The notes beneath the pieces are model-generated. The model was not told the origin of the DNA. It saw nothing but the letters and a program-made list of their open reading frames with translations, and did not search any database. From Candidatus Multivoradales bacterium (GTDB taxonomy: Bacteria > Acidobacteriota > Thermoanaerobaculia > Multivoradales > J023): a DNA stretch of 64,000 bases. Below, piece after piece: positions 39,401-57,295 of the stretch. Every line of letters begins with the position of its first letter. Positions within the stretch are counted from its first letter, which is position 1. The DNA is taken from assembly GCA_965248925.1 (NCBI GenBank), contig CBDFLE010000006.1:3456001-3520000 (forward strand). The letters run 5' to 3'. The translations under genes were made by a program, and so were the position numbers.

Positions 39401-40768
39401 AGCTTCGACAATTTCGGCAACATCCAGCAGCTATCAACACCCGGCTTCGCGGCTCTCAATCTCAACCCCAGCGCCACCACCAACCGCCTCGGCCTCTCGG
39501 GCGCTCAGTACGACGCGGCCGGCAATCTGACCGACATCACCCTCGGCAGCGAGAGCTTCGACTACGCCTTCGACGGCGCCAACATGATGAAGCACCTGCG
39601 CTCGAACACCGATCAAGCGCGGGTCTTCATCTACAACGCCAGCGACGAGCGGATCCTCACCTTCGACTGCTTCGGCCCCGGCGCCACCAGCACTTGCACC
39701 ACCCAGCCCGCCAGCCTCACCTGGACCCTACGCGGTCTCGGCAACGAAGTCCTGCGAGTCTACGATCAGCCAGCTGGCGGCGCCTTCAGCTGGAGTCGAG
39801 ACTACGTCCATCGCGGCGGGCAGCCCCTCGCCACCATCGAGCCCGAGGGTAGCGGTGGCGAGATGACGTCGCATCTCCATCTTGATCACCTGGGCACACC
39901 CCGGCAGATCACCCGAGGGGGTCAGCAGGTGGCGTTGCACAACTACTTTCCCTTTGGTCAAGAGGCGACCAGCGCGGAGGCTGACGAGATCCAGCTGAAA
40001 TTCACCGGTCATGAGCGGGACAAGACCGGGACCGGGGCGAGGAGCGAGCTGGACTACATGCATGCGCGGCATTGCAGTCCGGTGGTGGGGCGGTTCTTGA
40101 GTGTGGACCCGGCGAAGTCCGCCAAGCCCAGCGCGCCGGGAAGCTGGAACCGCTATTCCTATGCGGGGAACAACCCGATCAACGAGATCGACCCCAATGG
40201 GCGAGAAAGCCGTGCGGCGATGGCTCTCGAACAAGATATACAGCGCTTGATGCGGGGCGAGATCACCCAGGAGCAGTACATTGAGAACATCAATGCTCGG
40301 GGAATGGGAGCACTGTTTGCTGCCAGCCTTCTCTCGCCAGTCGACGAGACGACTCTTGTTGTCGCTGTTACTCGAAAAGCACTTCCTAGTGTTGGGTCAA
40401 AGCTGTCTGCTGTCTTTGCTCGACTTGGTAAGGTCTTTCAACGGGGATCGCGCGGAGGAGCAAAGGGGGCAGCGAGCGTTGACGACCTGCTTCGGGCTGG
40501 CCAGCAACTGGATAGAAATGGACTTAGCAGAGCTGGGCGCTCTCTACAGAAGCACGGAGACAGAGCAGACAGCGTTTTTCCACGGTCAACGGGCAATGCA
40601 GCTGCAAGGAACGATCAAGGACAACAGATCCTTGAAGAGATCTTGAACAGCTCGAACCAGACTACTCGGGCAAATCGCCTCGGTGGACGGGATATTTTCG
40701 ATACTGCCAGTGGGCGCGGAGTACGCTTCGACGGAGATGGGCAGTTCATAGGATTCCTAGATCCATGA
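36401..40768 (+). CDS. rhs: Rhs/YD-repeat polymorphic toxin, main body with core and C-terminal toxin
   Basis: Many YDxxGR repeats; core HLDHLGTPR...YFPFG...KFTGHERD...GRFLSVDP...PINEIDPNGR; tip AGRSLQKHG...GRGVRFD..GQFIGFLDP (predicted nuclease-type). Confidence 0.93.
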   Translation: MEDRFGNWINVRYANDGDWTLTDSQGRTHTVDFVGGRVATVRLEAFGSQSNSTFLFQYRTETLERQFGFRPGCVPIAEHTLTTQVLDRVVLPDGSFYEMDYLTVDNLLSGGLSKLRLPTGGAYGYDYQLFPFQTQLADLFHAPDWGTVARGVKSKHLFLDDGDTTPYATWSYTYDTANPQAPGDPLGHPCFHSMKVTDPLGFETVGYFSTVGANNRWSYGLPYTYCDPISGSFSEAGPFLSQELFDAGGVKLRSIFVEFDSDGRDAGNYNEKAHRLRYRKETFHDDGGKVREVTFSDFDGLGHFRTMTTGGSFGAADVRTSSTTYNANPDDSSIDPATDLVLPSHNARWILETWDEQSVSEGGTTEKAEFCFSSTTGFLERRRQLAGSSRQSRDVVSLLTSTDGFVTGERVYGGDTQNLGTGSLCSLGLSGPTYRTDHVYASGSLRKSTAVDCTGTAILTLADYDIDSDTGLVATSRDAAGLGTSFTYDRLGRLTGQRPAELGWTQWTYTLPTTANPSLAPKLTEQQCQPFQTSCSGTDLMSFREHRYDGLGRRLQETVRIPIANAGQTELWHRYTTWNPRHWKTDESVWTTASAAGESRRTTYLAYDRFGRPGRVKPPEQPATFFTYQGDRVQTRRFKVQLTSGQQDTYVTEIMDGQGRLAEVCEGSSAAWSGSCGGGGLLTRYSYDDGGRLTKVCQNLSGSTCGQTRLFSYDGRGFLLSETHPEIGPSGNGRIDYRFDAGGNATSKDLIGSTAFDLSFDFDAAGRLIRVLESSNGAGSTPRLQKQFRYARTNSGSDHRAGKLVQTVRHNWVDIQSPLAPEPGSLDVKLSESFRYTGRQGLMSEKQTRYQFFAGNYAFTTGFAFDTQGNLSQLDYPSCQHADGGCATNDPQRTVNFNYEKGMLRSVPGFANNLTYQSGGMLHQLAHSDGVVDSQEVSSLNGLARPHQLTTSAGWSSGNFAYDGAGNISAIGNLAYRYDRLGRLISGQTSVGATLFTQTASFDNFGNIQQLSTPGFAALNLNPSATTNRLGLSGAQYDAAGNLTDITLGSESFDYAFDGANMMKHLRSNTDQARVFIYNASDERILTFDCFGPGATSTCTTQPASLTWTLRGLGNEVLRVYDQPAGGAFSWSRDYVHRGGQPLATIEPEGSGGEMTSHLHLDHLGTPRQITRGGQQVALHNYFPFGQEATSAEADEIQLKFTGHERDKTGTGARSELDYMHARHCSPVVGRFLSVDPAKSAKPSAPGSWNRYSYAGNNPINEIDPNGRESRAAMALEQDIQRLMRGEITQEQYIENINARGMGALFAASLLSPVDETTLVVAVTRKALPSVGSKLSAVFARLGKVFQRGSRGGAKGAASVDDLLRAGQQLDRNGLSRAGRSLQKHGDRADSVFPRSTGNAAARNDQGQQILEEILNSSNQTTRANRLGGRDIFDTASGRGVRFDGDGQFIGFLDP

Positions 40769-41019
40769 AGCGGGATGAGTTCTCAGCTGGCCATTTCAGC
40801 GTGATGATTGCCAGCGATCTGGATCACGAGAAGGTTTACGCAGAGATCTACTGTGATGACAAGTTTGTGGCGCTCGTGAGCCAGGAGCATGGCCTTGAGC
40901 ACAAAATGTTAGAGGTGCCAGGGCCTGGGCTTGTGGAAGAACAAATCTCTCGGGAGGTGGATCTCAAGGGTTTTCAGCACGCTCTTGAGCTAGCCGCGAG
41001 AAAGCTGCACGGCGAGTAG
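40765..41019 (+). CDS. Putative immunity protein for the main Rhs tip
   Basis: Small acidic ORF with ATGA overlap directly after the toxin. Confidence 0.8.
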   Translation: MKRDEFSAGHFSVMIASDLDHEKVYAEIYCDDKFVALVSQEHGLEHKMLEVPGPGLVEEQISREVDLKGFQHALELAARKLHGE

Positions 41020-41057
41020 GCCGCGTTGGCCAACCTTTGACAGTAGCTCGCCATCAT

Positions 41058-41084
41058 GAGTGCCCGGTGTCCCACCGGGCACTC
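41058..41084. terminator. Hairpin between convergent genes
   Basis: GAGTGCCCGGTG-TCC-CACCGGGCACTC, perfect 12-bp stem; no clear U-tract. Confidence 0.5.
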
Positions 41085-41462
41085 TCACTGGTGGAGCACT
41101 TCTTCGATCTGGTGCTTCTTGATGTAGGCGTCGATAAGGGAGGTGACGACGTGGCGATCATCGTCGCTCATCCGCTCGACCGCTTCGAACTGGCGTAGCA
41201 ACTCCCGATCCCGCAAGGCAGCCCCACGGGCTGCATCCCCATCGAGATCATCCCGCAGTAGAAAATCGATCGAGACGTCGAGAACATCGGCGAGCCTGAC
41301 GGCAGTTTCGGCGTTGGGCATGGCTTGGCCAATCTCATACTTGCCTACATGGCGACCGTGGATGCCGACCCGTTTGCCGAACTCGTCCTGGGACCATCCG
41401 CGCTCTTTGCGCAGCTTGCGGAGCTTCTGGCCGAAGCTGGGGGCGTCTGTAGTCATCTCCAT
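41085..41462 (-). CDS. XRE-family repressor (type A)
   Basis: FGQKLRKLRKERGWSQDEFG...KYEIGQAMP...LADVLDVSIDFLL. Confidence 0.9.
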   Translation of the reverse strand: MEMTTDAPSFGQKLRKLRKERGWSQDEFGKRVGIHGRHVGKYEIGQAMPNAETAVRLADVLDVSIDFLLRDDLDGDAARGAALRDRELLRQFEAVERMSDDDRHVVTSLIDAYIKKHQIEEVLHQ

Positions 41463-41667
41463 CCGTTGCCTCTCGCTATGAATCTCCGCAAATTCTACAG
41501 CGCAAGCACCTCGCCATCAAGGGAAATGGAGTCTCGGGGCAGAGTTCTTACTTGTAAAACCACGTCTATGCGCTATATAATCGAGTCAATCGATGCGTAT
41601 GGTGCTCGCTATGAAAACGAGCCCATCAGCTACAACAGAAAGACAGAATCTTGCCGGAGGATCTCCA

Positions 41668-41964
41668 ATGACCGAGCACAAGCTAACGATCTCCGCCCTG
41701 TACCGCCCCGGCTGGCACGTCTTGCCCAGATCGGCACAGCTGCCATTGCTGCAAGTGGTCGGCCCATGGCTCCAGGACGCTGGCTTCTACCCCGGTGCGC
41801 GAGTGCGGATCGATGTGGTGGGTGACGGGCGTTTGGTGGTGACGCGGGTGGAAGAGGGCGAGGAGGAGAGGGAAATGCAGCCGGTGGTGTGGGTGCCGGC
41901 GGATCAGATCGGCCGGATTGATGAGGTCTCGGCAAGTCGCCTGGCAGGAGCAGCCTGTGTCTGA
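41668..41964 (+). CDS. SymE-like (AbrB-fold) protein 1
   Basis: PLLQVVGPWLQDAGFYPGARVRIDV...RLVVT; GGAGG RBS. Confidence 0.75.
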   Translation: MTEHKLTISALYRPGWHVLPRSAQLPLLQVVGPWLQDAGFYPGARVRIDVVGDGRLVVTRVEEGEEEREMQPVVWVPADQIGRIDEVSASRLAGAACV

Positions 41965-42181
41965 GTCGAGAGCTGAGCGGCATCTGACGATCTCTACCCT
42001 GCACGAGCCCCGCGCACCGCACTACATCAACGGTCCGTGCTCGGTGCGGCTTGTGCCGTTTGTGCGGATGCGGGGGGCTTGGCTGGAAGCAGCGGGGTTT
42101 CGCTGTGGGGAGCGGCTGCGGGTGGAGGTCGAGCAGGATCGTTTGGTGCTTACTCCGGTGGGATCGGAGGCGGCACGGTGA
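41957..42181 (+). CDS. SymE-like protein 2
   Basis: PFVRMRGAWLEAAGFRCGERLRVEVEQDRLVLT; GTG start after AGGAG. Confidence 0.8.
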   Translation: MSESRAERHLTISTLHEPRAPHYINGPCSVRLVPFVRMRGAWLEAAGFRCGERLRVEVEQDRLVLTPVGSEAAR

Positions 42182-45100
42182 GCAGGATTCCGGAAGCGGA
42201 AGTGGAGCGACTAAAGCGAGAAGTATCGGTGGAACGCCTGGTCCTGGCCCGCGGTGTAGAGCTGAAACGGCACGGGGCGGACCTGCTGGGGCTGTGTCCG
42301 TTTCACGACGACCACGAGCCGTCGCTGGTGATCTCGCCAAAGAAGAACCTGTGGCACTGCCTGGGCGCCTGCCAGGCGGGTGGCTCGGTGATCGATTGGG
42401 TGATGCGAGATCGCGGGGTGTCGTTTCGCCACGCGGTCGAGCTGCTGCGCTCGGATCTGCCGGCGGCGGCGGTCACTGAGGCGCGGCCTTCGGCGCCGGC
42501 TCTGCCTTCGCCGGTGGTGGCGGACGTCGAGGACGCGGAGTTGCTCGGCCAGGTCGTCGGCTACTACCACGAGGCTTTGAAGGAGGGCCCGGAGGCGCTG
42601 GCTTATCTGGAGAGCAGAGGGCTGAAGCACCCGGAGATGATCGAGCATTTCAGGCTTGGCTTCGCCAACCGGACGCTGGGCTATCGACTGCCATCGAAGC
42701 AGCTGAAGGCGGGTAAGGAGATGCGGGGTCGATTGCAGAAGCTCGGCGTGCTGCGCAAGTCGGGTCATGAGCACTTCAACGGCTCGATCGTCTTTCCGGT
42801 TTTCGATTCAACAGGCCAGGTGGTGGAGATCTACGGGCGCAAGATCACACTAAATCTTCGCAAGGGGACGCCCTTGCATCTCTATCTGCCGGGTCCACAT
42901 CGAGGGATCTTTAATGCGGAAGCTCTGGTGGCCTCGACCGAGATCATCCTCTGCGAGTCGCTGATCGACGCTCTGACTTTCTGGTGTGCGGGTTACCGTA
43001 ACGTCACCAGCGCCTACGGCATCCAGGGTTTCACCGCGGAGATGCTGGCAGCCTTCGGTGGCCACGGAGTCGAGCGGGTGCTGATCGCCTACGACCGTGA
43101 CGATGCCGGCGAGAAGGCCGCCGGGAAGCTGGCCGAGAAGCTGGTGGGTGCCGGGATCGACTGCTACCGAATCCAATTTCCGCGTGGCATGGATGCCAAC
43201 GAGTACGCGCTGAAGGTGACCCCGGCGGCGAAGTCGCTGGGGGTGGTGATCCGCAAAGCACAGTGGCTCGGCAAAGGCAAGCCGCCGGGCGTGAAACCGG
43301 GGTTTGGGCCAACAGCTGGCCTAATCGCGCCAACGGTACGGCCAAACACAGCCGCAGAGGCGGTAATGGCTCCACCAACAGAGCAGCTGACATCATCGAA
43401 TACCGCCGGAGAGGCGGTATTGGCACTGCCCGCCCCGGCCGAAGCCTCCCCACTGCCCGCACCGCCTCCGCCAGATATGCCGGCTGAGGTGCGCGACCAG
43501 GAGGTGGTCTTGTCGCTCGGCGATCGCCGCTACCGCATTCGCGGTCTGCCGAAGAATCTGGCCTACGACGTGCTCAAGGTCAACGTCCTGGCGTCGCGGG
43601 GCGACGCCTTCCACGTCGACACTTTCGATCTCTACGCGGCGCGGCCGCGGGCGGTGTTTCAGCGGGCGGCAGCCGCTGAGCTGGGGGTCGAGGAGCAGGT
43701 GGTCAAGAAGGATCTGGGCAAGGTGCTGCTGAAGCTCGAGGAGCTGCAGGACGAGCAGATCCGCTCAGCACTCGAGCCGCAGTCGACGGCGGTGGAGCTG
43801 TCAGAGGGAGAGAAGGAAGCGGCGCTTGAGCTGCTGCGCTCACCAGATCTCTTGGTGCGCATCCTCGCGGACTTCGAGCGCTGCGGGGTGGTGGGCGAGG
43901 AGGTCAACAAGCTGATGGGCTACCTGGCGTCGACCTCGCGTTTCCTGGAACGGCCGCTGGCGGTGGTGGTGCAGTCCAGCTCAGCGGCCGGTAAGTCGGC
44001 GCTGATGGAGGCGGTGCTGTCGCTGATGCCAGGTGAGCAGCAAGTGAAGTACTCGGCGATGACCGGGCAATCGCTGTTCTACATGGGCGAAACGGATCTG
44101 CAGCACAAGATCCTGGCGATCGTCGAGGAGGAGGGGGCCGAGCGGGCTAGCTACGCCTTGAAGCTGCTTCAGTCGGAGGGCGAGCTGACGATTGCCTCGA
44201 CCGGCAAGGATGCTTCAACGGGCAAGCTGGTGACGCACGAGTACCACGTCGAAGGGCCGGTGATGATCTTCTTGACGACCACGGCAATCGACATCGATGA
44301 AGAGCTTTTGAATCGCTGCTTGGTGCTCTCGGTGGACGAGGCGCGAGAGCAGACGCGGGCGATTCACCGGCTGCAGCGGCAGCGGCGGACGCTGGAGGGG
44401 CTACTCTCGCGCACCCGGCGCGACGGGGTGATGGCGCTGCACCAGAACGCGCAGCGGCTGCTGCGGCCGCTGGCGGTGGTCAATCCCTTTGCTCCGGAAC
44501 TTACCTTTCTCGATACGCAAATCCGCACCCGCCGGGACCACGAGAAGTACCTGACGCTGATCGACGTGATTGCTCTTTTGCATCAATACCAGCGAGAGGT
44601 GAAGCTGGCGGTGGTCGACGGGCGAGAGGTGGAGTACGTCGAAGTGGTGGCCACAGACATCGAGACAGCCAACCGCCTGGCGCACGAAGTCTTGGGGCGC
44701 TCGCTCGATGAGCTGCCGCCGCAGACGCGGCGCCTGCTGGGGCTGATCGACGAGATGGTCAGCGAAGCCTGTGAGGCGCTGGCGATGGATCGGCCGGACT
44801 ACCGTTTCAGCCGGCGGGCGGTGCGCGAGCACACCGGCTGGGGCAATACGCAGCTGAAGCTGCACCTACGCCGTCTTGAGGAGTTTGAGTATCTGCTGGT
44901 GCATCAGGGCGGGCGGGGGCAGAGCTTTGTCTACGAGCTGGTTTACGTGGCCAGCGACGAGCCGGAGCGGCCGCGACTGCCGGGGCTGATCGAGGTCGAA
45001 ACACTCAGGTACGACGAAAAGAAGTCGGGGTCTGAAGCTGAGAAGTCGGGGCCAAGTCGGCCCCAAGTCGGGGGGGTGTCGGGGGGTGGTCGGGGTGCAG

Positions 45101-45243
45101 TTTCCCAAGCAGAATCAACAACTTCGGCCGGAAATCGTGGAGTTTCGGCAAAAAACGCATATAAGGGGGTGCGAGAAAACGGCCCGTCATGTCGTAAATC
45201 TGGGCCTCGTACCGGCGGCTCGGCGGCGGTCGAGGGGGCCTGA
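42178..45243 (+). CDS. CHC2 zinc-finger / TOPRIM primase fused to a P-loop ATPase (replication protein)
   Basis: CPFHDD...WHCLGAC; ESLIDA and YDRDDAG; Walker A-like SSSAAGKS; GTGA coupling to the SymE-like gene. Confidence 0.9.
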   Translation: MSRIPEAEVERLKREVSVERLVLARGVELKRHGADLLGLCPFHDDHEPSLVISPKKNLWHCLGACQAGGSVIDWVMRDRGVSFRHAVELLRSDLPAAAVTEARPSAPALPSPVVADVEDAELLGQVVGYYHEALKEGPEALAYLESRGLKHPEMIEHFRLGFANRTLGYRLPSKQLKAGKEMRGRLQKLGVLRKSGHEHFNGSIVFPVFDSTGQVVEIYGRKITLNLRKGTPLHLYLPGPHRGIFNAEALVASTEIILCESLIDALTFWCAGYRNVTSAYGIQGFTAEMLAAFGGHGVERVLIAYDRDDAGEKAAGKLAEKLVGAGIDCYRIQFPRGMDANEYALKVTPAAKSLGVVIRKAQWLGKGKPPGVKPGFGPTAGLIAPTVRPNTAAEAVMAPPTEQLTSSNTAGEAVLALPAPAEASPLPAPPPPDMPAEVRDQEVVLSLGDRRYRIRGLPKNLAYDVLKVNVLASRGDAFHVDTFDLYAARPRAVFQRAAAAELGVEEQVVKKDLGKVLLKLEELQDEQIRSALEPQSTAVELSEGEKEAALELLRSPDLLVRILADFERCGVVGEEVNKLMGYLASTSRFLERPLAVVVQSSSAAGKSALMEAVLSLMPGEQQVKYSAMTGQSLFYMGETDLQHKILAIVEEEGAERASYALKLLQSEGELTIASTGKDASTGKLVTHEYHVEGPVMIFLTTTAIDIDEELLNRCLVLSVDEAREQTRAIHRLQRQRRTLEGLLSRTRRDGVMALHQNAQRLLRPLAVVNPFAPELTFLDTQIRTRRDHEKYLTLIDVIALLHQYQREVKLAVVDGREVEYVEVVATDIETANRLAHEVLGRSLDELPPQTRRLLGLIDEMVSEACEALAMDRPDYRFSRRAVREHTGWGNTQLKLHLRRLEEFEYLLVHQGGRGQSFVYELVYVASDEPERPRLPGLIEVETLRYDEKKSGSEAEKSGPSRPQVGGVSGGGRGAVSQAESTTSAGNRGVSAKNAYKGVRENGPSCRKSGPRTGGSAAVEGA

Positions 45244-46316
45244 TGCCGCGCCGTGGCGAGCGCAAGATCCGCCTCTTGCCGGGCAATCCAACCGACCCTC
45301 GGGGCTTCGCGGTGATGGCGGGTCAGTACCTGGAGTGGATGGCGATCAAGAACTACTCTCCACGAACCGTTGAGAACCGGCATCTATACCTCTCGTTTCT
45401 CATCGCATGGTGTGAAGAGCGTGGGGTGTCGCGGCCGTCGGAAGTGACCAAGCCGATCCTGGAGCGCTACGCCAGGTGGCTCTACCACTACCGCAAGCCT
45501 GGGGACGGGCGGCCGCTGTCTTTCCGGGCTCAGCACTCGCGGCTGGTGCCGGTAAGGGCCTTCTTCAAATGGGCGGCTCGGGCCAACCACCTGCTCTACA
45601 ACCCGGCCTCGGAGCTGGAGCTACCGAAGCTGGAGCACCGGCTGCCGGCGGCGGTGCTGACCGCCTCTGAAGCCGACCAGGTGCTCAACCAGCCCGACAC
45701 CACGGAGCCGCTCGGGATGCGCGACCGAACAATCCTTGAAGTCTTCTACTCCACGGGCATGCGCCGGGCTGAGCTGATCGGCCTCGGCCGTTACGATCTC
45801 GACATCGAGCGCGGGACGGTGATGGTGCGCCAGGGCAAGGGTAGGAAAGATTGGATGATCCCGATCGGCGAGCGGGCGTTGGCCTGGATCGATCGCTACG
45901 TCACTGCGGTACGGCCGTCGCTGGTGGTCGAGCCGGACGGCGGGCCGCTCTTTCTCACCAACCAGGGGACGCCGTTTGCGCCGTCGCGAATGACTCAGCT
46001 GGTGCGCGGCTACGTGCTCGCCGCCGATCTCGGCAAGTCGGGCGCTTGCCATCTCTTCCGCCACACGATGGCGACGCTGATGCTCGAAGGTGGTGCGGAT
46101 ATCCGCTTCATTCAGCAGATGCTCGGCCATGCCAAGCTGGAGACGACGCAGATTTACACTCAGGTATCGATCCGCAAACTGAAGTCGATCCACTCGGCAA
46201 CCCATCCGGGCGCGAAGCTAGGGCGGCGGGTGGCACCGCCGACAGAAGAAGACGGCAGCGATGAAGTGACCGCCGAGGACTTACTCGATGTAGTCGAGAC
46301 CGAGGCGGAGGACTGA
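45243..46316 (+). CDS. XerC/XerD-like tyrosine integrase
   Basis: Catalytic set TGMRRAEL, GKG, HLFRH, LGH, TQIYT; TGATG coupling. Confidence 0.93.
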   Translation: MPRRGERKIRLLPGNPTDPRGFAVMAGQYLEWMAIKNYSPRTVENRHLYLSFLIAWCEERGVSRPSEVTKPILERYARWLYHYRKPGDGRPLSFRAQHSRLVPVRAFFKWAARANHLLYNPASELELPKLEHRLPAAVLTASEADQVLNQPDTTEPLGMRDRTILEVFYSTGMRRAELIGLGRYDLDIERGTVMVRQGKGRKDWMIPIGERALAWIDRYVTAVRPSLVVEPDGGPLFLTNQGTPFAPSRMTQLVRGYVLAADLGKSGACHLFRHTMATLMLEGGADIRFIQQMLGHAKLETTQIYTQVSIRKLKSIHSATHPGAKLGRRVAPPTEEDGSDEVTAEDLLDVVETEAED

Positions 46317-46721
46317 CCCCCGCCCGAAGCGGTCCGGGTCTGCGGGTCCCGCGCTGCGGCCGGCTGCGCCGTCCTCCGTTCGCGGGCCACGCAGCCCTCG
46401 GCAGTATTTTTTCGTCACCCCAGCCCGCCCCGGCCCGAGCATCTGCGATCCACCACCTGAGCCCTCCGATCACCGGCCCGGCGCGGGGCTTCAAGTAGTC
46501 CAAGAGAAGACTCTTCGAAAGCTCACCCCAAGCTCCGCCGGGGCGTGTGTCCCTCCGGTCGCTGCGCTCCCTCCGGGCACGGGCCAGCCGCTCCGCAAGC
46601 CGCGCGCCACCTGGGTCCCTCCTCGGACCTCCCAGGTGTCACGCGGCTTGCATGGGTCGCTGTCCGATAGTGCGCGCCCTATCCGACCTGGCCCTCACAC
46701 GCCCCGGCTCCGGGCCTACGG

Positions 46722-46751
46722 CCTTTCCATAACGCGTGCATTATGGAAACT
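46722..46751. other. dif/cer-like recombination site (11-8-11)
   Basis: CCTTTCCATAA-CGCGTGCA-TTATGGAAACT; second copy at 54479-54508; absent from unit 3. Confidence 0.55.
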
Positions 46752-47206
46752 TGGGGTGAGCACTCCGCGAGCCTGCGATGGTCAGCGGCTTCGGAACCAC
46801 GCCCCGCTCCGGGCCTCCTTGCCGAGATCCACCAGCCAGCACTGCGACGGCTCGGCCCGGCCCCGTCCGCCCCCTCAAGGGGGCTCCCCATCCTCCTCCC
46901 AAGACCCGCCCTGCGTCGTGGCCTCCGTACCCTGCGCGCGGCGCCCTGCGGTCGCCGTGCTCGGCTCCGGCCCCGCCGCCACCACGCCCCCAACGTGCAG
47001 ATTGGTTTGGCGGCTGCGCCGCCGGCACCAAACTGCCGGAAAGACCCGCGCTCGCTCCGACGACCAGCCCGACGAAAACGACCTAAGAAAACACCCACTG
47101 CCCGAAGAAAGCGGCCTAAGAAAACCGCATCCCGCCTCCGCACCAACCACCCTTCCTCCTTTAGCCGCTGTCTTCGAGCGCCACCCGCGGCGTAGAATGG
47201 CCCGGC

Positions 47207-48283
47207 ATGAGGCAGGCAGCTAAAGGAAGAAGCACTTGGACGATGGCGCTCGGGCTGGTCGTCGCGCTCCTGGCGGTGACGATGCCGGCAACAGCGATCG
47301 CGCCGATCTCCGAGTCGAGCTACGCCGAAACTCGCCTCTGGACCTTCGAGCACCAAGACCCCGCCGGCAGTAGGGCCGAGCGAGGCTTAAGTAGAACAGG
47401 CATAGAGGGTTACCAGCTCTCAAGCTGGAAACCGCGTCGGGCTGTCCCCTTCACCCGAGGGGGTCAGCAGGTGGCGTTGCACAACTACTTTCCCTTTGGT
47501 CAAGAGGCGACCAGCGCGGAGGCTGACGAGATCCAGCTGAAATTCACCGGCCATGAGCGGGACAAGACCGGGACCGGCAGCCGCTCCGAGCTGGACTATA
47601 TGCATGCTCGGCATTGCAGCCCGGTGGTGGGGCGGTTTTTGAGTGTGGATCCATCTCTGGGTAGCCGGTCCTCACCACAGAGTTGGAATCGCTTCTCTTA
47701 CGTCAGCAACAGTCCAATCAACCAGGTAGACCCGGACGGAAGGCTTGGGTTTCTGGTAACTGCATTTCTTGGCGGAGTCGTAGATGTTGGGATTCAAATT
47801 GCGAGCAACGCGCTTTCAGGGGAAGAGCTCACAACAGGCGTAGCCGGGGCTTTCGTCACCGGAGCAGTGGCTGGTGCCACAGGTCTTGGGCTATTGAAGG
47901 TGGCTGGTAGGGGAGCGAAGCTCGTAGGAGCCGTAAGAAATGCAAAGAAACTGAAGAAGTCAGCTGCTGCTGCTGACGCAGCTAGAGCGGGCGCAAAGGG
48001 GGCAGCGGAGGTTTCGCAGAAGGTTGCAAACCAGGCTAACCACATCTTCGGTTCAAAGAACCTCGCAAAACATAGGCTCGGCGGGGTTCTCGACGCCTTC
48101 GGCGGAGACCAGGTCGCGGCGTTACGATCCATAGAGTCAAGTGCACAGAAGCTCGCAGCCAGCGGGGCTATCGAGGGTGTTTTCCGAACAGTGGTGAGGG
48201 TTGGAGAACAATCGGTCATGGTGAGGGGCCGTGTGATTGATGGTGTCGTGAACATCTCCACTGCCTTCATCCCGATCCCATAG
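47207..48283 (+). CDS. Signal-peptide leader fused to Rhs core and toxin tip 2a
   Basis: Leader MALGLVVALLAVTMPATA joins TRGGQQVALHNYFPFG at the 47451 junction; PINQVDPDGR; tip ending VRGRVIDGVVNISTAFIP. Confidence 0.85.
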   Translation: MRQAAKGRSTWTMALGLVVALLAVTMPATAIAPISESSYAETRLWTFEHQDPAGSRAERGLSRTGIEGYQLSSWKPRRAVPFTRGGQQVALHNYFPFGQEATSAEADEIQLKFTGHERDKTGTGSRSELDYMHARHCSPVVGRFLSVDPSLGSRSSPQSWNRFSYVSNSPINQVDPDGRLGFLVTAFLGGVVDVGIQIASNALSGEELTTGVAGAFVTGAVAGATGLGLLKVAGRGAKLVGAVRNAKKLKKSAAAADAARAGAKGAAEVSQKVANQANHIFGSKNLAKHRLGGVLDAFGGDQVAALRSIESSAQKLAASGAIEGVFRTVVRVGEQSVMVRGRVIDGVVNISTAFIPIP

Positions 48284-48287
48284 GAGT

Positions 48288-48647
48288 ATGCGGATGAGCA
48301 CGGAGAGCCTGGAATCTGCTGTCATCAGCAGAATGTTGGATGACCCTGAACTTTCACCTTGCCTTCGTTCGCTCGACCCCTTGTCACTGGTGATGTCGGA
48401 GCGGAACTTCAGCCAAGTAGGGTTCATCACCAGCTTCGCTCGGACTTCTGGAACAAAGCTGTTCGGTGACGACATCTCCATGCGGTGGGGAAAGGTTATT
48501 GTGCGCATCAATTCCGAGATTGATGTGGACTTCGTCGTCTATGTGGATGACGGATACCTGACCGGAATTGAAGGCTGCACCTTCGGCGGCGAGTTGTGGC
48601 CCTCCGAAATAGAAGCGTTCGAGTTGACTGATCTGCCGGATGGTTGA
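48288..48647 (+). CDS. Putative immunity protein 2a
   Basis: Directly follows the toxin; acidic; ERNFSQVGFITSF...FVVYVDDGYLTGIEGCTFG. Confidence 0.8.
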   Translation: MRMSTESLESAVISRMLDDPELSPCLRSLDPLSLVMSERNFSQVGFITSFARTSGTKLFGDDISMRWGKVIVRINSEIDVDFVVYVDDGYLTGIEGCTFGGELWPSEIEAFELTDLPDG

Positions 48648-48951
48648 TCGTCGTGCCGGCGGAGTGCCAGCGGTCACGCCGCTTCGAATCCAGGAGCACG
48701 ACGGTCACCTTCAAACGTTGGGCCTGTCTTCGATCGGGAAGTTGGAACTCGCGGTAGCGGTGTCGCCGGGAGTCTCGGCCGAGACAGCGCGGCAACTTCT
48801 GCACTCAGCAGCTTCCTACATGGTTTCGGTCAACTACCGGCCCGAGGCGGGGGAAATCCTGTGCTATGAGGGCCAGTGCTACCGGCTGGAGCCGGTGCGG
48901 GGTGGCCTCCTGCTGCTGCGTCCGGTGATTGGCAGTGAGGCCGCCAGCTAA
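48640..48951 (+). CDS. Hypothetical protein, possible accessory immunity
   Basis: Overlaps the immunity stop; LQTLGLSSIGKLEL motif; a variant occurs in unit 3. Confidence 0.5.
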   Translation: MVDRRAGGVPAVTPLRIQEHDGHLQTLGLSSIGKLELAVAVSPGVSAETARQLLHSAASYMVSVNYRPEAGEILCYEGQCYRLEPVRGGLLLLRPVIGSEAAS

Positions 48952-48958
48952 GCCGCGA

Positions 48959-49330
48959 TCAGGGGGCAGCGGTGGCTGATTCCTGGGTGACGAGGTCAAC
49001 GAACTTCTTCTTGGTCAGCAGGCCATCGATGATCTTGATGACGGCAGCCTTTTCCTCGGGGTCGAGGCGTTCGAGCAGCTCCATGCGCTGGGCGAGAGGC
49101 TGATCTTCGAGCCGGACGGGTCGAAACTCTCCCTCTTCTTCATTCAGCAGAAAGTCGGTCGTCACCTCGAACTCTGAGGCGAGCTTGCGCAGCAGGTCAA
49201 TGGACGGCTGGTAGCGGCCGTTCTCAAGCCGGCTGATGTGGCCAGTGCTAACCCCGAGGCGCTTGCCGAGTTCGCCCTGGGCCCACCTGTGCTCAGCGCG
49301 GAGCTTTCGGATCTTCTCTTGAAGGGTCAT
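48959..49330 (-). CDS. XRE-family repressor (type B)
   Basis: LQEKIRKLRAEHRWAQGELG...ISRLENGRYQPS; ATG at 49330. Confidence 0.9.
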   Translation of the reverse strand: MTLQEKIRKLRAEHRWAQGELGKRLGVSTGHISRLENGRYQPSIDLLRKLASEFEVTTDFLLNEEEGEFRPVRLEDQPLAQRMELLERLDPEEKAAVIKIIDGLLTKKKFVDLVTQESATAAP

Positions 49331-49428
49331 TGATCGTCGATTTCCTGGCCTCTTGGGCCGAATTTCCACTAATTCTAAGCGCATACGGTGATTTGCGCAA
49401 GTAATTCGGGCGAGAACGTACGCTCTGC

Positions 49429-49457
49429 TTGACGATGATAGGCGCATGCGTTATTAT
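49429..49457 (+). promoter_or_regulatory. Putative promoter of the symE-primase-integrase operon
   Basis: TTGACG-17bp-TATTAT; repeated in unit 3. Unit 1 has TTGTAA-18bp-TATAAT at 41552-41581. Confidence 0.5.
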
Positions 49458-49538
49458 TTGTGCATGAGAGCAGCAAGGTGCCGTGGTCGCAACCGTTAAC
49501 TGCTCCAAGCGTGATGCGAAAACTGGAGGGAAATCTCA

Positions 49539-49835
49539 ATGACCGAGCACAAGCTAACAATCTCCGCCCTGTACCGCCCCGGCTGGCACGTCTTGCCCAG
49601 ATCGGCACGGCTGCCATTGCTGCAGATTGCAGGTCCGTGGCTCCAGGACGCTGGCTTCTACCCTGGTGCGCGAGTGCGGGTCGACGTGGTGGGCGAAGGG
49701 CGCCTGGTGGTGACGCGGGTGGAAGAAGGCGAGGAAGAGAGGGAAATGCAGCCGGTGGTGTGGGTGCCAGCGGATCAGATCGGCCGGATTGATGAGGTCT
49801 CGGCAAGTCGCCTGGCAGGAGCAGCCTGTGTCTGA
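49539..49835 (+). CDS. SymE-like protein 1 (unit 2)
   Basis: Near-identical to 41668-41964. Confidence 0.75.
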   Translation: MTEHKLTISALYRPGWHVLPRSARLPLLQIAGPWLQDAGFYPGARVRVDVVGEGRLVVTRVEEGEEEREMQPVVWVPADQIGRIDEVSASRLAGAACV

Positions 49836-50052
49836 GTCGAGAGCTGAGCGGCATCTGACGATCTCTACCCTGCACGAGCCCCGCGCACCGCACTACATCA
49901 ACGGTCCGTGCTCGGTGCGGCTTGTGCCGTTTGTGCGGATGCGGGGGGCTTGGCTGGAAGCAGCGGGGTTTCGCTGTGGGGAGCGGCTGCGGGTGGAGGT
50001 CGAGCAGGATCGTTTGGTGCTTACTCCGGTGGGATCGGAGGCGGCACGGTGA
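49828..50052 (+). CDS. SymE-like protein 2 (unit 2)
   Basis: Identical protein to 41957-42181. Confidence 0.8.
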   Translation: MSESRAERHLTISTLHEPRAPHYINGPCSVRLVPFVRMRGAWLEAAGFRCGERLRVEVEQDRLVLTPVGSEAAR

Positions 50053-53000
50053 GCAGGATTCCGGAAGCGGAAGTGGAGCGACTAAAGCGAGAAGTATCGG
50101 TGGAACGCCTGGTCCTGGCCCGCGGTGTAGAGCTGAAACGGCACGGGGCGGACCTGCTGGGGCTGTGTCCGTTTCACGACGACCACGAGCCGTCGCTGGT
50201 GATCTCGCCAAAGAAGAACCTGTGGCACTGCCTGGGCGCCTGCCAGGCGGGTGGCTCGGTGATCGATTGGGTGATGCGAGATCGCGGGGTGTCGTTTCGC
50301 CACGCGGTCGAGCTGCTGCGCTCGGATCTGCCGGCGGCGGCGGTCACTGAGGCGCGGCCTTCGGCGCCGGCTCTGCCTTCGCCGGTGGTGGCGGACGTCG
50401 AGGACGCGGAGCTACTCGGCCAGGTCGTCGGCTACTACCACGAGGCTTTGAAGGACAGCCCGGAAGCGCTGACGTACCTGGAGAGTCGGGGCTTGAAGCA
50501 CCCGGAGATGATCGAGCATTTCCGGCTTGGCTTCGCCAACCGGACGCTGGGCTATCGTCTGCCATCGAAGCAGCTGAAGGCGGGTAAGGAGATGCGGGGT
50601 CGATTGCAGAAGCTCGGCGTGCTGCGCAAGTCGGGTCATGAGCACTTCAACGGCTCGATCGTCTTTCCGGTCTTCAAGGGTGGCCGGGTGGTGGAGATCT
50701 ACGGGCGCAAGATCACACTGAATCTTCGCAAGGGGACGCCCTTGCATCTCTATCTGCCGGGTCCACATCGAGGGATCTTTAATGCGGAAGCTCTGGTGGC
50801 CTCGACCGAGATCATCCTCTGCGAGTCGCTGATCGACGCTCTGACTTTCTGGTGTGCGGGTTACCGTAACGTCACCAGCGCCTACGGCATCCAGGGTTTC
50901 ACCGCGGAGATGCTGGCAGCCTTCGGTGGCCACGGAGTCGAGCGGGTGCTGATCGCCTACGACCGTGACGATGCCGGCGAGAAGGCCGCCGGGAAGCTGG
51001 CCGAGAAGCTGGTGGGTGCCGGGATCGACTGCTACCGAATCCAATTTCCGCGTGGCATGGATGCCAACGAGTACGCGCTGAAGGTGACCCCGGCGGCGAA
51101 GTCGCTGGGGGTGGTGATCCGCAAAGCACAGTGGCTCGGCAAAGGCAAGCCGCCGGGCGTGAAACCGGGGTTTGGGCCAACAGCTGGCCTAATCGCGCCA
51201 ACGGTACGGCCAAACACAGCCGCAGAGGCGGTAATGGCTCCACCAACAGAGCAGCTGACATCATCGAATACCGCCGGAGAGGCGGTATTGGCACTGCCCG
51301 CCCCGGCCGAAGCCTCCCCACTGCCCGCACCGCCTCCGCCAGATATGCCGGCTGAGGTGCGCGACCAGGAGGTGGTCTTGTCGCTCGGCGATCGCCGCTA
51401 CCGCATTCGCGGTCTGCCGAAGAATCTGGCCTACGACGTGCTCAAGGTCAACGTCCTGGCGTCGCGGGGCGACGCCTTCCACGTCGACACTTTCGATCTC
51501 TACGCGGCGCGGCCGCGGGCGGTGTTTCAGCGGGCGGCAGCCGCTGAGCTGGGGGTCGAGGAGCAGGTGGTCAAGAAGGATCTGGGCAAGGTGCTGCTGA
51601 AGCTCGAGGAGCTGCAGGACGAGCAGATCCGCTCGGCACTCGAGCCGCAGTCGACGGCGGTGGAGCTGTCAGAGGGAGAGAAGGAAGCGGCGCTTGAGCT
51701 GCTGCGCTCACCAGATCTCTTGGTGCGCATCCTCGCGGACTTCGAGCGCTGCGGGGTGGTGGGCGAGGAGGTCAACAAGCTGATGGGCTACCTGGCGTCG
51801 ACCTCGCGTTTCCTGGAACGGCCGCTGGCGGTGGTGGTGCAGTCCAGCTCAGCGGCCGGTAAGTCGGCGCTGATGGAGGCAGTGCTGGCACTGATGCCAG
51901 GTGAGCAGCAAGTGAAGTACTCGGCGATGACCGGGCAATCGCTGTTCTACATGGGCGAAACGGATCTGCAGCACAAGATCCTGGCGATCGTCGAGGAGGA
52001 GGGGGCCGAGCGGGCTAGCTACGCCTTGAAGCTGCTTCAGTCGGAGGGCGAGCTGACGATTGCCTCGACCGGCAAGGATGCTTCAACGGGCAAGCTGGTG
52101 ACGCACGAGTACCACGTCGAAGGGCCGGTGATGATCTTCTTGACGACCACGGCAATCGACATCGATGAAGAGCTTTTGAATCGCTGCTTGGTGCTCTCGG
52201 TGGACGAGGCGCGAGAGCAGACGCGGGCGATTCACCGGCTGCAGCGGCAGCGGCGGACGCTGGAGGGGCTACTCTCGCGCACCCGGCGCGACGGGGTGAT
52301 GGCGCTGCACCAGAACGCGCAGCGGCTGCTGCGGCCGCTGGCGGTGGTCAATCCCTTTGCTCCGGAACTTACCTTTCTCGATACGCAAATCCGCACCCGC
52401 CGGGACCACGAGAAGTACCTGACGCTGATCGACGTGATTGCTCTTTTGCATCAATACCAGCGAGAGGTGAAGCTGGCGGTGGTCGACGGGCGAGAGGTGG
52501 AGTACGTCGAAGTGGTGGCCACAGACATCGAGACAGCCAACCGCCTGGCGCACGAAGTCTTGGGGCGCTCGCTCGATGAGCTGCCGCCGCAGACGCGGCG
52601 CCTGCTGGGGCTGATCGACGAGATGGTCAGCGAAGCCTGTGAGGCGCTGGCGATGGATCGGCCGGACTACCGTTTCAGCCGGCGGGCGGTGCGCGAGCAC
52701 ACCGGCTGGGGCAATACGCAGCTGAAGCTGCACCTACGCCGTCTTGAGGAGTTTGAGTATCTGCTGGTGCATCAGGGCGGGCGGGGGCAGAGCTTTGTCT
52801 ACGAGCTGGTTTACGTGGCCAGCGACGAGCCGGAGCGGCCGCGACTGCCGGGGCTGATCGAGGTCGAAACACTCAGGTACGACGAAAAGAAGTCGGGGTC
52901 TGAAGCTGAGAAGTCGGGGCCAAGTCGGCCCCAAGTCGGGGGGGTGTCGGGGGGTGGTCGGGGTGCAGTTTCCCAAGCAGAATCAACAACTTCGGCCGGA

Positions 53001-53111
53001 AATCGTGGAGTTTCGGCAAAAAACGCATATAAGGGGGAGCGAGAAAACGGCCCGTCATGTCGTAAACCTGGGCGTCGTACCGGCGGCTCGGCGGCGGTCG
53101 AGGGGGCCTGA
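50049..53111 (+). CDS. CHC2/TOPRIM primase-ATPase (unit 2)
   Basis: Near-identical to 42178-45243. Confidence 0.9.
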   Translation: MSRIPEAEVERLKREVSVERLVLARGVELKRHGADLLGLCPFHDDHEPSLVISPKKNLWHCLGACQAGGSVIDWVMRDRGVSFRHAVELLRSDLPAAAVTEARPSAPALPSPVVADVEDAELLGQVVGYYHEALKDSPEALTYLESRGLKHPEMIEHFRLGFANRTLGYRLPSKQLKAGKEMRGRLQKLGVLRKSGHEHFNGSIVFPVFKGGRVVEIYGRKITLNLRKGTPLHLYLPGPHRGIFNAEALVASTEIILCESLIDALTFWCAGYRNVTSAYGIQGFTAEMLAAFGGHGVERVLIAYDRDDAGEKAAGKLAEKLVGAGIDCYRIQFPRGMDANEYALKVTPAAKSLGVVIRKAQWLGKGKPPGVKPGFGPTAGLIAPTVRPNTAAEAVMAPPTEQLTSSNTAGEAVLALPAPAEASPLPAPPPPDMPAEVRDQEVVLSLGDRRYRIRGLPKNLAYDVLKVNVLASRGDAFHVDTFDLYAARPRAVFQRAAAAELGVEEQVVKKDLGKVLLKLEELQDEQIRSALEPQSTAVELSEGEKEAALELLRSPDLLVRILADFERCGVVGEEVNKLMGYLASTSRFLERPLAVVVQSSSAAGKSALMEAVLALMPGEQQVKYSAMTGQSLFYMGETDLQHKILAIVEEEGAERASYALKLLQSEGELTIASTGKDASTGKLVTHEYHVEGPVMIFLTTTAIDIDEELLNRCLVLSVDEAREQTRAIHRLQRQRRTLEGLLSRTRRDGVMALHQNAQRLLRPLAVVNPFAPELTFLDTQIRTRRDHEKYLTLIDVIALLHQYQREVKLAVVDGREVEYVEVVATDIETANRLAHEVLGRSLDELPPQTRRLLGLIDEMVSEACEALAMDRPDYRFSRRAVREHTGWGNTQLKLHLRRLEEFEYLLVHQGGRGQSFVYELVYVASDEPERPRLPGLIEVETLRYDEKKSGSEAEKSGPSRPQVGGVSGGGRGAVSQAESTTSAGNRGVSAKNAYKGERENGPSCRKPGRRTGGSAAVEGA

Positions 53112-54184
53112 TGCCGCGCCGTGGCGAGCGCAAGATCCGCCTCTTGCCGGGCAATCCAACCGACCCTCGGGGTTTCGCGGTGATGGCCGGCCAGTACCTG
53201 GAGTGGATGGCGATCAAGAACTACTCTCCACGAACCGTTGAGAACCGGCATCTATACCTCTCGTTTCTCATCGCATGGTGTGACGAGCGTGGAGTGTCGC
53301 GGCCGTCGGACGTGACCAAGCCGATTTTGGAACGCTACGCCAGGTGGCTCTACCACTACCGCAAGCCCGAGGATGGGCGGCCGCTGTCTTTCCGGGCTCA
53401 GCACTCGCGGCTGGTGCCGGTAAGGGCCTTCTTCAAATGGGCGGCTCGGGCCAACCACCTGCTCTACAACCCGGCCTCGGAGCTGGAGCTACCGAAGCTG
53501 GAGCACCGGCTGCCGGCGGCGGTGCTGACCGCCTCTGAAGCCGACCAGGTGCTCAACCAGCCCGACACCGCCGACCCGCTCGGGATGCGCGACCGAACAA
53601 TCCTTGAAGTCTTCTACTCCACGGGCATGCGCCGGGCTGAGCTGATCGGCCTCGGCCGTTACGATCTCGACATCGAACGCGGGACGGTGATGGTGCGCCA
53701 GGGCAAGGGTAGGAAAGATTGGATGATCCCGATCGGCGAGCGGGCGCTGGCCTGGATCGATCGCTACGTCACTGAGGTACGGCCGTCGCTGGTGGTCGAG
53801 CCGGACGGCGGGCCGCTCTTTCTCACCAACCAGGGGACGCCGTTTGCGCCGTCGCGAATGACTCAGCTGGTGCGCGGCTACGTGCTCGCCGCCGATCTCG
53901 GCAAGTCGGGCGCTTGCCATCTCTTCCGCCACACGATGGCGACGCTGATGCTCGAAGGTGGTGCGGATATCCGCTTCATCCAGCAGATGCTCGGCCACGC
54001 CAAGCTGGAGACGACGCAGATTTACACTCAGGTATCGATCCGCAAACTGAAGTCGATCCACTCGGCAACCCATCCGGGCGCGAAGCTAGGGCGGCGGGTG
54101 GCACCGCCGACAGAAGAAGACGGCAGCGATGAAGTGACCGCCGAGGACTTACTCGATGTAGTCGAGACCGAGGCGGAGGACTGA
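53111..54184 (+). CDS. Tyrosine integrase (unit 2)
   Basis: Near-identical to 45243-46316; catalytic residues intact. Confidence 0.93.
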   Translation: MPRRGERKIRLLPGNPTDPRGFAVMAGQYLEWMAIKNYSPRTVENRHLYLSFLIAWCDERGVSRPSDVTKPILERYARWLYHYRKPEDGRPLSFRAQHSRLVPVRAFFKWAARANHLLYNPASELELPKLEHRLPAAVLTASEADQVLNQPDTADPLGMRDRTILEVFYSTGMRRAELIGLGRYDLDIERGTVMVRQGKGRKDWMIPIGERALAWIDRYVTEVRPSLVVEPDGGPLFLTNQGTPFAPSRMTQLVRGYVLAADLGKSGACHLFRHTMATLMLEGGADIRFIQQMLGHAKLETTQIYTQVSIRKLKSIHSATHPGAKLGRRVAPPTEEDGSDEVTAEDLLDVVETEAED

Positions 54185-54963
54185 CCCCCGCCCGAGCATC
54201 TGCGATCCACCACCTGAGCCCTCCGATCACCGGCCCGGAGCGAGGCTTCAGGTAGTCCAAGAAAAGAGTCTCCGAAAGCTCGCCCCACGCTCCGCCGGGG
54301 CGTGTGTCCCTCCGGTCGCTGCGCTCCCTCCGGGCACGGGCCAGCCGCTCCGCAAGCCGCGCGCCACCTGGGCCCCTCCTCGGACCTCCCAGATGTCACG
54401 CGGCTTGCATGGGTCGCTGTCCGATAGTGCGCGCCCTATCCGACCTGGCCCTCACACGCCCCGGCTCCGGGCCTACGGCCTTTCCATAACGCGTGCATTA
54501 TGGAAACTTGGGGTGAGCACTCCGCGAGCCTGCGATGGTCAGCGGCTTCGGAACCACGCCCCGCTCCGGGCCTCCTTGCCGAGATCCACCAGCCAGCACT
54601 GCGACGGCTCGGCCCGGCCCCGTCCGCCCCCTCAAGGGGGCTCCCCATCCTCCTCCCAAGACCCGCCCTGCGTCGTGGCCTCCGTACCCTGCGCGCGGCG
54701 CCCTGCGGTCGCCGTGCTCGGCTCCGGCCCCGCCGCCACCACGCCCCCAACGTGCAGATTGGTTTGGCGGCTGCGCCGCCGGCACCAAACTGCCGGAAAG
54801 ACCCGCGCTCGCTCCGACGACCAGCCCAACGAAAACGACCTAAGAAAACACCCACTGCCCGAAGAAAGCGGCCTAAGAAAACCGCATCCCGCCTCCGCAC
54901 CAACCACCCTTCCTCCTTTAGCCGCTGTCTTCGAGCGCCACCCGCGGCGTAGAATGGCCCGGC

Positions 54964-56040: not shown

Positions 56041-56050
56041 GAGTATACGG

Positions 56051-56404
56051 ATGAGTACGGAGATCCTGGAATCTGCTGTCATCGGCAGCATGTTGGACGA
56101 CTCAGAACTTTCACCTGGCCTTCGTTCGTTCGATCCGTTGGCACTCGTTGAAACAGAGCGGAACTTCAGCCAAGTAGGATTCATCACCAGCTTCGCTCGG
56201 ACTTCTGGAACAAAGCTGTTTGGCGATAACATCTCCATGCGGTGGGGGAAAGTTAGTGGACGCCTCAACTCCGAGATCGATGTGGGCTTCATCGTCTATG
56301 TGGATGACGGATACCTGACCGGAGTCGAGGGCTTCACCTATGGCGGGGAGCTGTGGCCCTCCGAGGTAAGAGCGTTCGAGTTGACGGATCTGCCGGACGG
56401 TTGA
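56051..56404 (+). CDS. Putative immunity protein 2b
   Basis: Diverged allele of 48288-48647. Confidence 0.8.
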   Translation: MSTEILESAVIGSMLDDSELSPGLRSFDPLALVETERNFSQVGFITSFARTSGTKLFGDNISMRWGKVSGRLNSEIDVGFIVYVDDGYLTGVEGFTYGGELWPSEVRAFELTDLPDG

Positions 56405-56426
56405 TTGTCGTGCCGTCGGGGTGTGA

Positions 56427-56708: not shown

Positions 56709-56715
56709 GCCGCGA

Positions 56716-57087: not shown

Positions 57088-57295
57088 TGATCGTCGATTT
57101 CCTGGCCTCTTGGGCCGAATTTCCACTAATTCTAAGCGCATACGGTGATTTGCGCAAGTAATTCGGGCGAGAACGTACGCTCTGCTTGACGATGATAGGC
57201 GCATGCGTTATTATTTGTGCATGAGAGCAGCAAGGTGCCGTGGTCGCAACCGTTAACTGCTCCAAGCGTGATGCGAAAACTGGAGGGAAATCTCA

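Follow-up and report, generated by a model that had tools for sequence, protein, structure and literature searches.

What exchanges the toxin-encoding tip of an rhs gene without breaking its reading frame? This question is raised by a stretch of 64,000 nucleotides from Candidatus Multivoradales bacterium (Acidobacteriota; NCBI GenBank assembly GCA_965248925.1, contig CBDFLE010000006.1, positions 3,456,001 to 3,520,000 of the forward strand; the whole stretch is called the window below), in which an rhs gene is followed by three tandem units of 7.5-7.8 kb and then by one further rhs tip. So far, homologous recombination with orphan or imported cassettes has been the explanation for how Rhs and other polymorphic toxins gain new tips. 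Here, we describe a 28-base inverted repeat at the joints of the units that is, judged from sequence comparisons, very probably a dif-like core site of the Xer-like tyrosine recombinase encoded by the units themselves, and at which insertion would swap the tip of the toxin gene in frame. A defined 28-base site with a dedicated recombinase would give site-specific exchange in frame, with the element bringing the matching immunity gene, and such a route would also explain the tandem stacks of displaced tips. If this is true, the units are a mobile, self-contained cassette system for toxin exchange.

The repeat, the joints and the crossover interval

At 47441..47468 on the plus strand, GCTGTCCCCTT-CACCCG-AGGGGGTCAGC is an 11-6-11 inverted repeat with arms complementary at 9 of 11 positions. 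It lies at one of four joints, named here by the type of attachment site (att) that they resemble. Alignment of the joints gives the following features, all on the plus strand, the unit boundaries being taken from the joints.

39899..39926: attL, the rhs junction, with the rhs left arm CCCCGGCAGAT (3/11), the core and the start of U1; the rhs frame passes through
47441..47468: attP-type joint U1/U2 at the unit boundary, with the U1 arm, the core and the start of U2; inverted arms 9/11
55198..55225: second attP-type joint, U2/U3; its 28 bases are identical to 47441-47468; 9/11
62811..62838: attR, with the element arm, the core and the right arm AGGCGGACAGC of the displaced resident tip; arms 9/11
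47451..47460: crossover interval TCACCCGAGG, the sole stretch common to all four joints
39909..47450: element U1, 7,542 bases
47451..55207: element U2, 7,757 bases
55208..62820: element U3, 7,613 bases
36401..40768: rhs gene, 1,455 amino acids, with RHS_repeat and now with a tip brought by U1; the Rhs_assc_core domain (TIGR03696) begins ~10 residues past the crossover

A preliminary description of this DNA had reported 9/11 arms at both attP-type joints and, with the other right arm, at attR, and a left arm at the rhs junction that does not match; all of these observations stand.

The interval TCACCCGAGG begins with the final T of the left arm; the spacer CACCCG and the bases AGG make up the rest. 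On its left, the first joint carries rhs sequence and the other three carry the element arm, and the two differ up to the base preceding T 47451. On its right, attL and the starts of U2 and U3 are identical for ~100 bases; the right flank of attR diverges from the element starts immediately after G 47460, the two being 81% alike in the 100 bases that follow. The succession attL, attP, attP, attR is as expected from repeated insertion. The rhs frame is unbroken across the first joint (open reading frame (ORF) 36401-40768), and the fusion is therefore in frame.

The same interval recurs outside the window. Among 23 matches to the recombinase in this genome, 14 are copies with at least 81% identity, and element arms likewise number 14. 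Over 200 bases, the arm is 100% identical in 12 of these 14 elements; besides two divergent single elements, the genome thus holds 12 elements with identical arms, which fall in four arrays.

Window array: 3 units
G000:C6:1342651-1350252 (array B): 1 unit
C4:78756-71153: 1 unit
G000:C5:984654-921917: 7 units in one rhs gene

The same 10 bases adjoin the arm at each of the 12 identical-arm joints, and from the next base onwards the sequence is one of four variants, namely GGGTCAGC (four joints, G..T), CGGACAGC (five, C..A), TGGTCAGC (two, T..T) or TGGACAGC (one, T..A). A copy of U1 with 0 mismatches in 7,542 bases lies on another contig, inside the seven-unit array (G000:C5:974206-966665). To the left of this copy, identity begins at the first core base and the flanks differ from base -1 onwards, rhs sequence standing against element arm; to the right, it extends to the end of the core, and mismatches follow at +11 and +14. 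The moved unit is therefore bounded by the core at both ends. The preliminary description had taken the repeat for the core site of the integrase and had named crossovers scattered across the Rhs core in homologous elements as a finding that would speak against it. Within each lineage, the crossovers lie at one place, and the 10-base interval holds CACCCG in the window, at 12/12 joints of the genome and in the mismatch-free duplicate.

Two further features of the seven-unit array were seen. One of its units is 12.2 kb long (spacing 959182 to 946949), and its first unit matches U1 exactly over 4,516 bases before diverging from it.

The recombinase and its proposed action

The enzyme to which we assign the site is encoded once in each unit of the window.

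45243..46316, plus strand: Xer-like tyrosine recombinase of U1, 357 amino acids; copies at 53111-54184 and 60826-61902

This recombinase passes the cut-off of the NCBIfam model NF002331 for the XerC subfamily (427.7 bits, cut-off 371), which supports the reading as a core site. It stays below the cut-offs of the equivalog models for XerC (220.9 versus 335 bits) and XerD (215.6 versus 330 bits) and is therefore an Xer-like paralogue and not the housekeeping enzyme; with the integron integrase model TIGR02249, its score is far below the cut-off (100.9 versus 265 bits). The best relative of solved structure is E. coli XerD (1a0p, E 2.8e-39), and in the alignment with this protein the GMR, GKGxK, HxxRH and LGH...Y positions are conserved, including the R, K, H, R, H and Y residues with catalytic roles in tyrosine recombinases. 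Xer enzymes act on 28-base sites with the 11-6-11 layout of dif. A dif of 28 bp is also named in PMC10210955.

We suggest the following mechanism. The repeat would function as a dif-like site, i.e., as two inverted arms of ~11 bases that flank a central region of 6 to 8 bases. In the free form of the element, which is presumably circular, attP would consist of the element arm, CACCCG and the first codons of the carried Rhs core end. The chromosomal site, attB, would be the same codons (I/F-T-R-G-G-Q) in an rhs gene, ~10 residues before the Rhs-associated core domain, and only its right arm would resemble a binding site. A symmetric attP (9/11) and a half-matching attB, of which the right arm alone matches (left arm 3/11), are what the preliminary description had proposed, and the joints agree with it. 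Strand exchange inside TCACCCGAGG would join rhs in frame to the tip, toxin and immunity gene of the element and leave the old tip downstream, behind the element arm; repeated insertion would yield the tandem array. The site, the crossover interval and its conservation, the type of recombinase and the in-frame fusion are visible in the sequence itself; we infer the binding of the recombinase, the positions of cleavage, the circular intermediate and the order of the insertions. With a defined site and a dedicated recombinase, tip swapping becomes directly testable.

Related lineages, covariation and competing explanations

Relatives of the element place the joint at a repeat of the same layout in other sequence contexts. 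Of 23 other genomes in the same taxonomic family, 4 contain a relative (E 1e-60 or better). The genome G015, of another genus, contains four tandem elements with integrases ~80% identical to those of the window. Their joints share only the 11 bases GTCCCAAGGGG, one attP-type joint is a perfect 11-6-11 repeat, GCTGTTCCCCT-GTCCCA-AGGGGAACAGC, and the cargo sequences past the joint are mutually unrelated; homologous recombination is therefore ruled out for the G015 array. Whereas the window elements target the Rhs core end, those of G015 are inserted in a linker that lies deeper in the toxin of an Rhs-like gene. C4div and C6div, the divergent elements of the window genome, target other places in Rhs repeat regions, with spacer TCGCCG and arms of 7/11 in C4div and spacer TGAGCA and arms of 3/11 in C6div. 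Three lineages with different target positions thus coexist in one genome, a natural series in which the retargeting of a tyrosine recombinase within coding sequence can be studied. In all four lineages with both an attL and an attR, shared identity starts at the spacer or nearly so (0, 1, 0 and 2 bases to its left), and the left arm of attL is non-matching also in the other three lineages that have an attL.

A wider scan of a genome collection gave 226 relatives, from which 80 loci with integrases of 50-85% identity were kept. Their record titles name Acidobacteriota, Myxococcota, Planctomycetota, Verrucomicrobiota, Actinomycetota and Gammaproteobacteria, and with relatives in several phyla the phenomenon may be widespread. 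In the four further tandem pairs L058/L060, L084/L086, L096/L097 and L055/L094, the arms are identical, and this identity stops 5-10 bases past a spacer-like hexamer. In the family consensus, a box close to AAMYTGCGTCGG precedes a left arm of 11 bases with TT or TA at its end; the spacer is mostly GYCSCA, and the right arm begins with AA or AG. When the 80 loci were scanned with the left-arm motif of the window (up to 2 mismatches), the site was found only in the close relatives L029-L032, L036, L038 and L106, most other matches being chance, and the same motif gave no recognisable site in the elements of G007, whose integrases are 50-56% identical. In the window, the box is followed directly by the left arm and partly overlaps a second inverted repeat of the element arm.

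47429..47440, plus strand: conserved box AAACCGCGTCGG, directly 5' of the left arm; part of the family consensus
47407..47434, plus strand: second inverted repeat, GGTTACCAGCT-CTCA-AGCTGGAAACC, in the element arm 34 bases upstream of the core; arms 10/11, 4-base loop; DNA fold z -3.8

The box is kept even though the site is read in three frames, with 19, 7 and 3 of 29 sites in the respective frames; the motif is therefore conserved as DNA and not as protein. A covariance model of the site, run on both strands of 61 loci outside the model (483,958 bases), gave 16 matches with E up to 1, and every one of these lies on the same strand as the integrase and 318-2,358 bases downstream of it. The second inverted repeat could be the site of an accessory protein or an RNA structure. 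At the equivalent position, G015 has a different inverted repeat (ACCCGYC...GACGGGT).

The preliminary description had called for a comparison of homologous elements, and the relatives carry the repeat at the joint, in one case perfectly, with arms that co-vary. Two lines of evidence support this covariation. First, the joints of 11 lineages were located independently of the repeat, from array breakpoints or from left-arm similarity. Their own arms score 9, 7, 3, 9.5, 8, 8, 8, 6.5, 8, 3 and 4 of 11, and a lineage's own arms beat arms swapped between lineages (mean 6.7 versus 5.3, permutation p = 0.003). Second, over 25 sites the covariation score is 0.471, compared with 0.286 (standard deviation 0.027) in shuffles, none of 500 of which reached it, and with 0.31 or less for slid partners; cells changed on both sides number 50 versus 23.7 (standard deviation 4.5). 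Of these 25 rows, 13 had been selected with a repeat filter, and the result is inflated accordingly. Matched changes are seen in individual pairs of arms, such as GCTGTCC...GGACAGC in the window versus GCTGTTC...GAACAGC in G015, and CCCCTT...AGGGG versus CGCCTT...AAGGCG in L038.

Together with this filter, several observations weigh against the reading as a core site. Repeats of equal quality are common: the 64 kb window contains 25 repeats of 11-6-11 layout with at least 9/11, of which 6 are the three copies each of the core repeat and of the second repeat upstream of it. The background arm score has a mean of 2.9 and a standard deviation of 1.5, and the probability of at least 9/11 is 3.9e-4 per position; a rough calculation of our own from the repeat rates in the window gives ~0.005 for an equally good repeat (spacer 5-8) within the 10-base interval. 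Thus, the repeat alone is not rare, and its position at the joints, with the spacer inside the 10 shared bases, exceeds chance. In 3 of the 11 lineages the right arm is at chance level, i.e., in C6div (3/11), Conexibacteraceae (3/11) and Microbulbifer (3-5/11), and the two joints of L096/L097 differ in their spacer (GCCGCA versus GCCCCA). Of 33 downstream cargo peptides, only 2 score above a Pfam cut-off (L050 with CdiA_C, L060 with PT-HINT), and we claim toxin cargo for the window genome and G015 and not for all elements. Assembled contigs of four Logan runs, all of one sample, were compared over 39400-48400 and gave no att joint, a result that is uninformative on excision or circles. Their sole joint, present in all four runs, skips 111 bases (46321 to 46433) and is a copy variant within the variable stretch that follows the integrase; the contigs of all four runs stop at 47460, which fits a branch at the next base, the runs being non-independent as they share the sample.

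Two more of these observations would also be expected if RecA-type (Campbell) recombination had acted between the Rhs core homology of the element and rhs, the joint being the left edge of the homology and the repeat a coincidence. The unit starts are 81-100% identical to rhs cores over ~200 bases and visibly mosaic, and the attL of array B reads TCACGCGCGG, with 2 changes from the core, followed by two more rhs-like variants up to base 20. The central region is identical in the attL of the other three of four arrays and at 12/12 element-arm joints. The attL of array B could reflect a mismatch that is tolerated in the central region, where a heteroduplex may segregate either way, later gene conversion from one of the many rhs paralogues, or a crossover further to the right. 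A left homology edge would look fixed here too, and homologous recombination, as the mosaic pattern shows, does act on the rhs-like unit starts and is possible for any single event. As the general explanation, we nevertheless regard it as improbable. Homologous recombination would not be expected to cross over so close (within 10 bases) to the edge of homology, and yet 12 joints combine an identical non-homologous arm and 10 identical bases with four variants at the very next base. Moreover, this architecture recurs in G015 and in four other tandem arrays, where no more than 5-19 bases are shared and the cargo is unrelated. Every unit has an Xer-like recombinase dedicated to it, and the arms co-vary across lineages.

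The core site could be used by the recombinase as a folded single strand, like the attC sites of integrons or the sites of CTX phage, rather than as a duplex. The repeat does fold as single-stranded DNA (-8.7 kcal/mol, z -2.2), and the primase encoded by the element makes single-stranded intermediates conceivable. However, the fold is only modestly better than that of shuffled sequences, 6 of 200 of which equal it, and the right arm varies between joints and is at chance level in the three lineages named above. The pattern of attL, attP and attR is that of ordinary duplex exchange, and the score with the integron integrase model is far below its cut-off. We find use as a hairpin as unlikely as general RecA-type recombination.

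It is highly improbable that host XerC/XerD or another recombinase acts on the site and that the element integrase has another role: CTX phage and the gonococcal island do borrow the host Xer enzymes, but the window genome contains three sets of arms and spacers (GCTGTCCCCTT/CACCCG, GCTATCCCCTT/TCGCCG and GGTGTCCACTT/TGAGCA), each beside its own integrase variant (100%, 92% and 81% identity), which one host enzyme pair would not explain, and the site is always downstream of the integrase on the same strand. The use of host Xer by the gonococcal island is described in PMC10210955.

Known systems and the genes of the units

With a dif-like core site and a recombinase of its own as the preferred reading, the element shares features with several known systems. 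By score, its recombinase belongs to the Xer family, and the site has the 28-base layout of dif. In contrast to the Xer/dif systems, whether with XerC/XerD or with the single enzymes XerH, XerS and XerA, the element enzyme occurs in 14 copies, one per mobile element, the target is the coding sequence of a toxin gene and not the chromosome terminus, and only three of the four half-sites are alike. Integrative mobile elements exploiting Xer (IMEX), such as CTX phage and the gonococcal genetic island, also use a dif-like site for integration, and degenerate arms are tolerated at their sites; in addition, the repressor of the element is of the RstR family, which is named after CTX phage. IMEX, however, have no recombinase of their own and target dif, whereas each unit in the window encodes a recombinase and the target is the rhs reading frame or a toxin gene, and we do not count the element among them.

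Integrative elements and phages reportedly insert at the 3' ends of genes, such as tRNA genes and protein genes such as dusA, and carry a replacement end. In these cases as in the window, the end of the target gene is also present in attP, and the gene is intact after insertion. The end carried by the window element differs from the one it replaces, bringing a new toxin domain and an immunity gene, and thus would change the function of the target. Displacement of Rhs C-terminal ends and the resulting arrays of orphan toxins, work on which is attributed to Jackson in 2009 and Koskiniemi in 2014, are said to arise by homologous recombination in the core without a recombinase. There too, the main rhs gene has a new tip, and old tips and immunity genes are stacked downstream. 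The displaced tips of the window, by contrast, start exactly at the recombinase site, and a non-rhs element arm precedes them up to the base before the core; an orphan array made by homologous displacement does not describe the window. Elsewhere in the same genome, G000:C6:2444213-2456684 contains 7 Rhs core ends in 12.5 kb with rhs-type left flanks and without element arms or integrases, and is therefore a classical orphan array.

The rAID islands of Bacteroidales are recombinase-associated immunity islands. Polyimmunity loci often lie beside XerC/D genes, for which a role in accumulating cassettes was proposed, according to Zhang et al. 2012 (PMC3482391), the nearest published parallel that we found. 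In both systems, as in the window, Xer-like recombinases adjoin stacks of toxin and immunity cassettes; they differ in having a single recombinase beside the immunity arrays, no replication gene and no in-frame exchange of tips, and the passage of Zhang et al. on these loci gives no defined site in a toxin frame. Integrons resemble the element in the exact exchange of cassettes at a crossover point and in the growth of arrays by repeated site-specific insertion. The element lacks the hairpin logic of attC, and its cassettes, units of 7.5-7.8 kb, each have their own recombinase, primase and repressor; with the low score against TIGR02249, we do not regard it as an integron.

In the full-text literature, with subscription journals outside the coverage, we found no description of an integrase-borne site inside rhs or of elements that swap toxin tips. 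On balance, we think it probable that the elements represent an undescribed, multi-phylum family of small integrative elements, with an Xer-like recombinase, a primase and a repressor, that insert in the reading frames of polymorphic toxins. Depending on the lineage, they would target the Rhs core end, Rhs repeats or toxin linkers, swap tip and immunity gene in frame and stack the old tips in arrays of up to seven units, their arms and spacer having co-evolved with the recombinase and the target codons. The family has a searchable signature, in which an Xer-like integrase is followed 0.3-2.4 kb downstream by the box and left arm, with an ORF running through.

Within a unit, the genes are ordered as Rhs core end (~85 codons, TIGR03696 Rhs_assc_core), toxin, presumed immunity ORF, helix-turn-helix (HTH) repressor, primase and recombinase, followed by ~1.1 kb ending in the left arm. 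The features besides the recombinase are as follows.

47207..48283, plus strand: ORF that begins in the element arm, crosses the core and extends into the toxin and Rhs core end of U2; equivalents at 54964-56040 and 62577-63638
48288..48647, plus strand: presumed immunity gene of U2, so named from its position only; others at 40765-41019, 56051-56404 and 63638 onwards
41085..41462, minus strand: RstR-family HTH repressor of U1; NF041951 at 89.2 bits, cut-off 80; HTH_3
48959-49447 and 56716-57204: HTH repressor genes of U2 and U3; oriented divergently within the units
42037..45243, plus strand: 1,068-residue protein of U1 with an N-terminal DnaG-type primase (Pfam Zn_ribbon_DnaG, Toprim_2 and DNAG_N; PHROG primase families); copies at 49908-53111 and 57665-60826

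The presumed immunity genes had no match in Pfam or other family-model searches, and in Pfam and PHROG the C-terminal ~650 residues of the primase protein matched no family except, weakly, a PHROG of unknown function (residues 609-791). The units are related and not identical. U1 differs from U2 and U3 in its tip and its repressor; Between U2 and U3, the differences lie in the end of the toxin, the presumed immunity gene (82-89% identity) and a part of the primase (63-90% identity).

The element arm (47207-47450, and also 54964-55207 and 62577-62820) encodes a leader whose start, MALGLVVALLAVTMPATAIA, is hydrophobic and resembles a signal peptide, and which contains a conserved AETR motif. The frame of this leader continues across the core into the tip, and in 35 of 37 related sites an ORF spans the spacer; displaced or episomal tips may thus be translated independently. 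After a DPDG motif, the tips of U2, U3 and the resident gene share a Gly/Ala-rich hydrophobic stretch and diverge only later (47760-48000 versus 63130-63370). The insertion point in G015 is a lysine-rich linker of its toxin, which resembles the boundary of this Gly/Ala stretch.

Between the integrase and the conserved arm, the stretch 46225-46760 is mosaic and rich in indels, with 38-87% identity between units. An ORF near its end, orf195 (46636-47223), was discounted as a gene, with no family assigned and no tblastn match in G015. Two adjacent genes for AcrB-type resistance-nodulation-division (RND) transporters of 1,198 and 1,051 amino acids precede the rhs gene, at 28757-35492.

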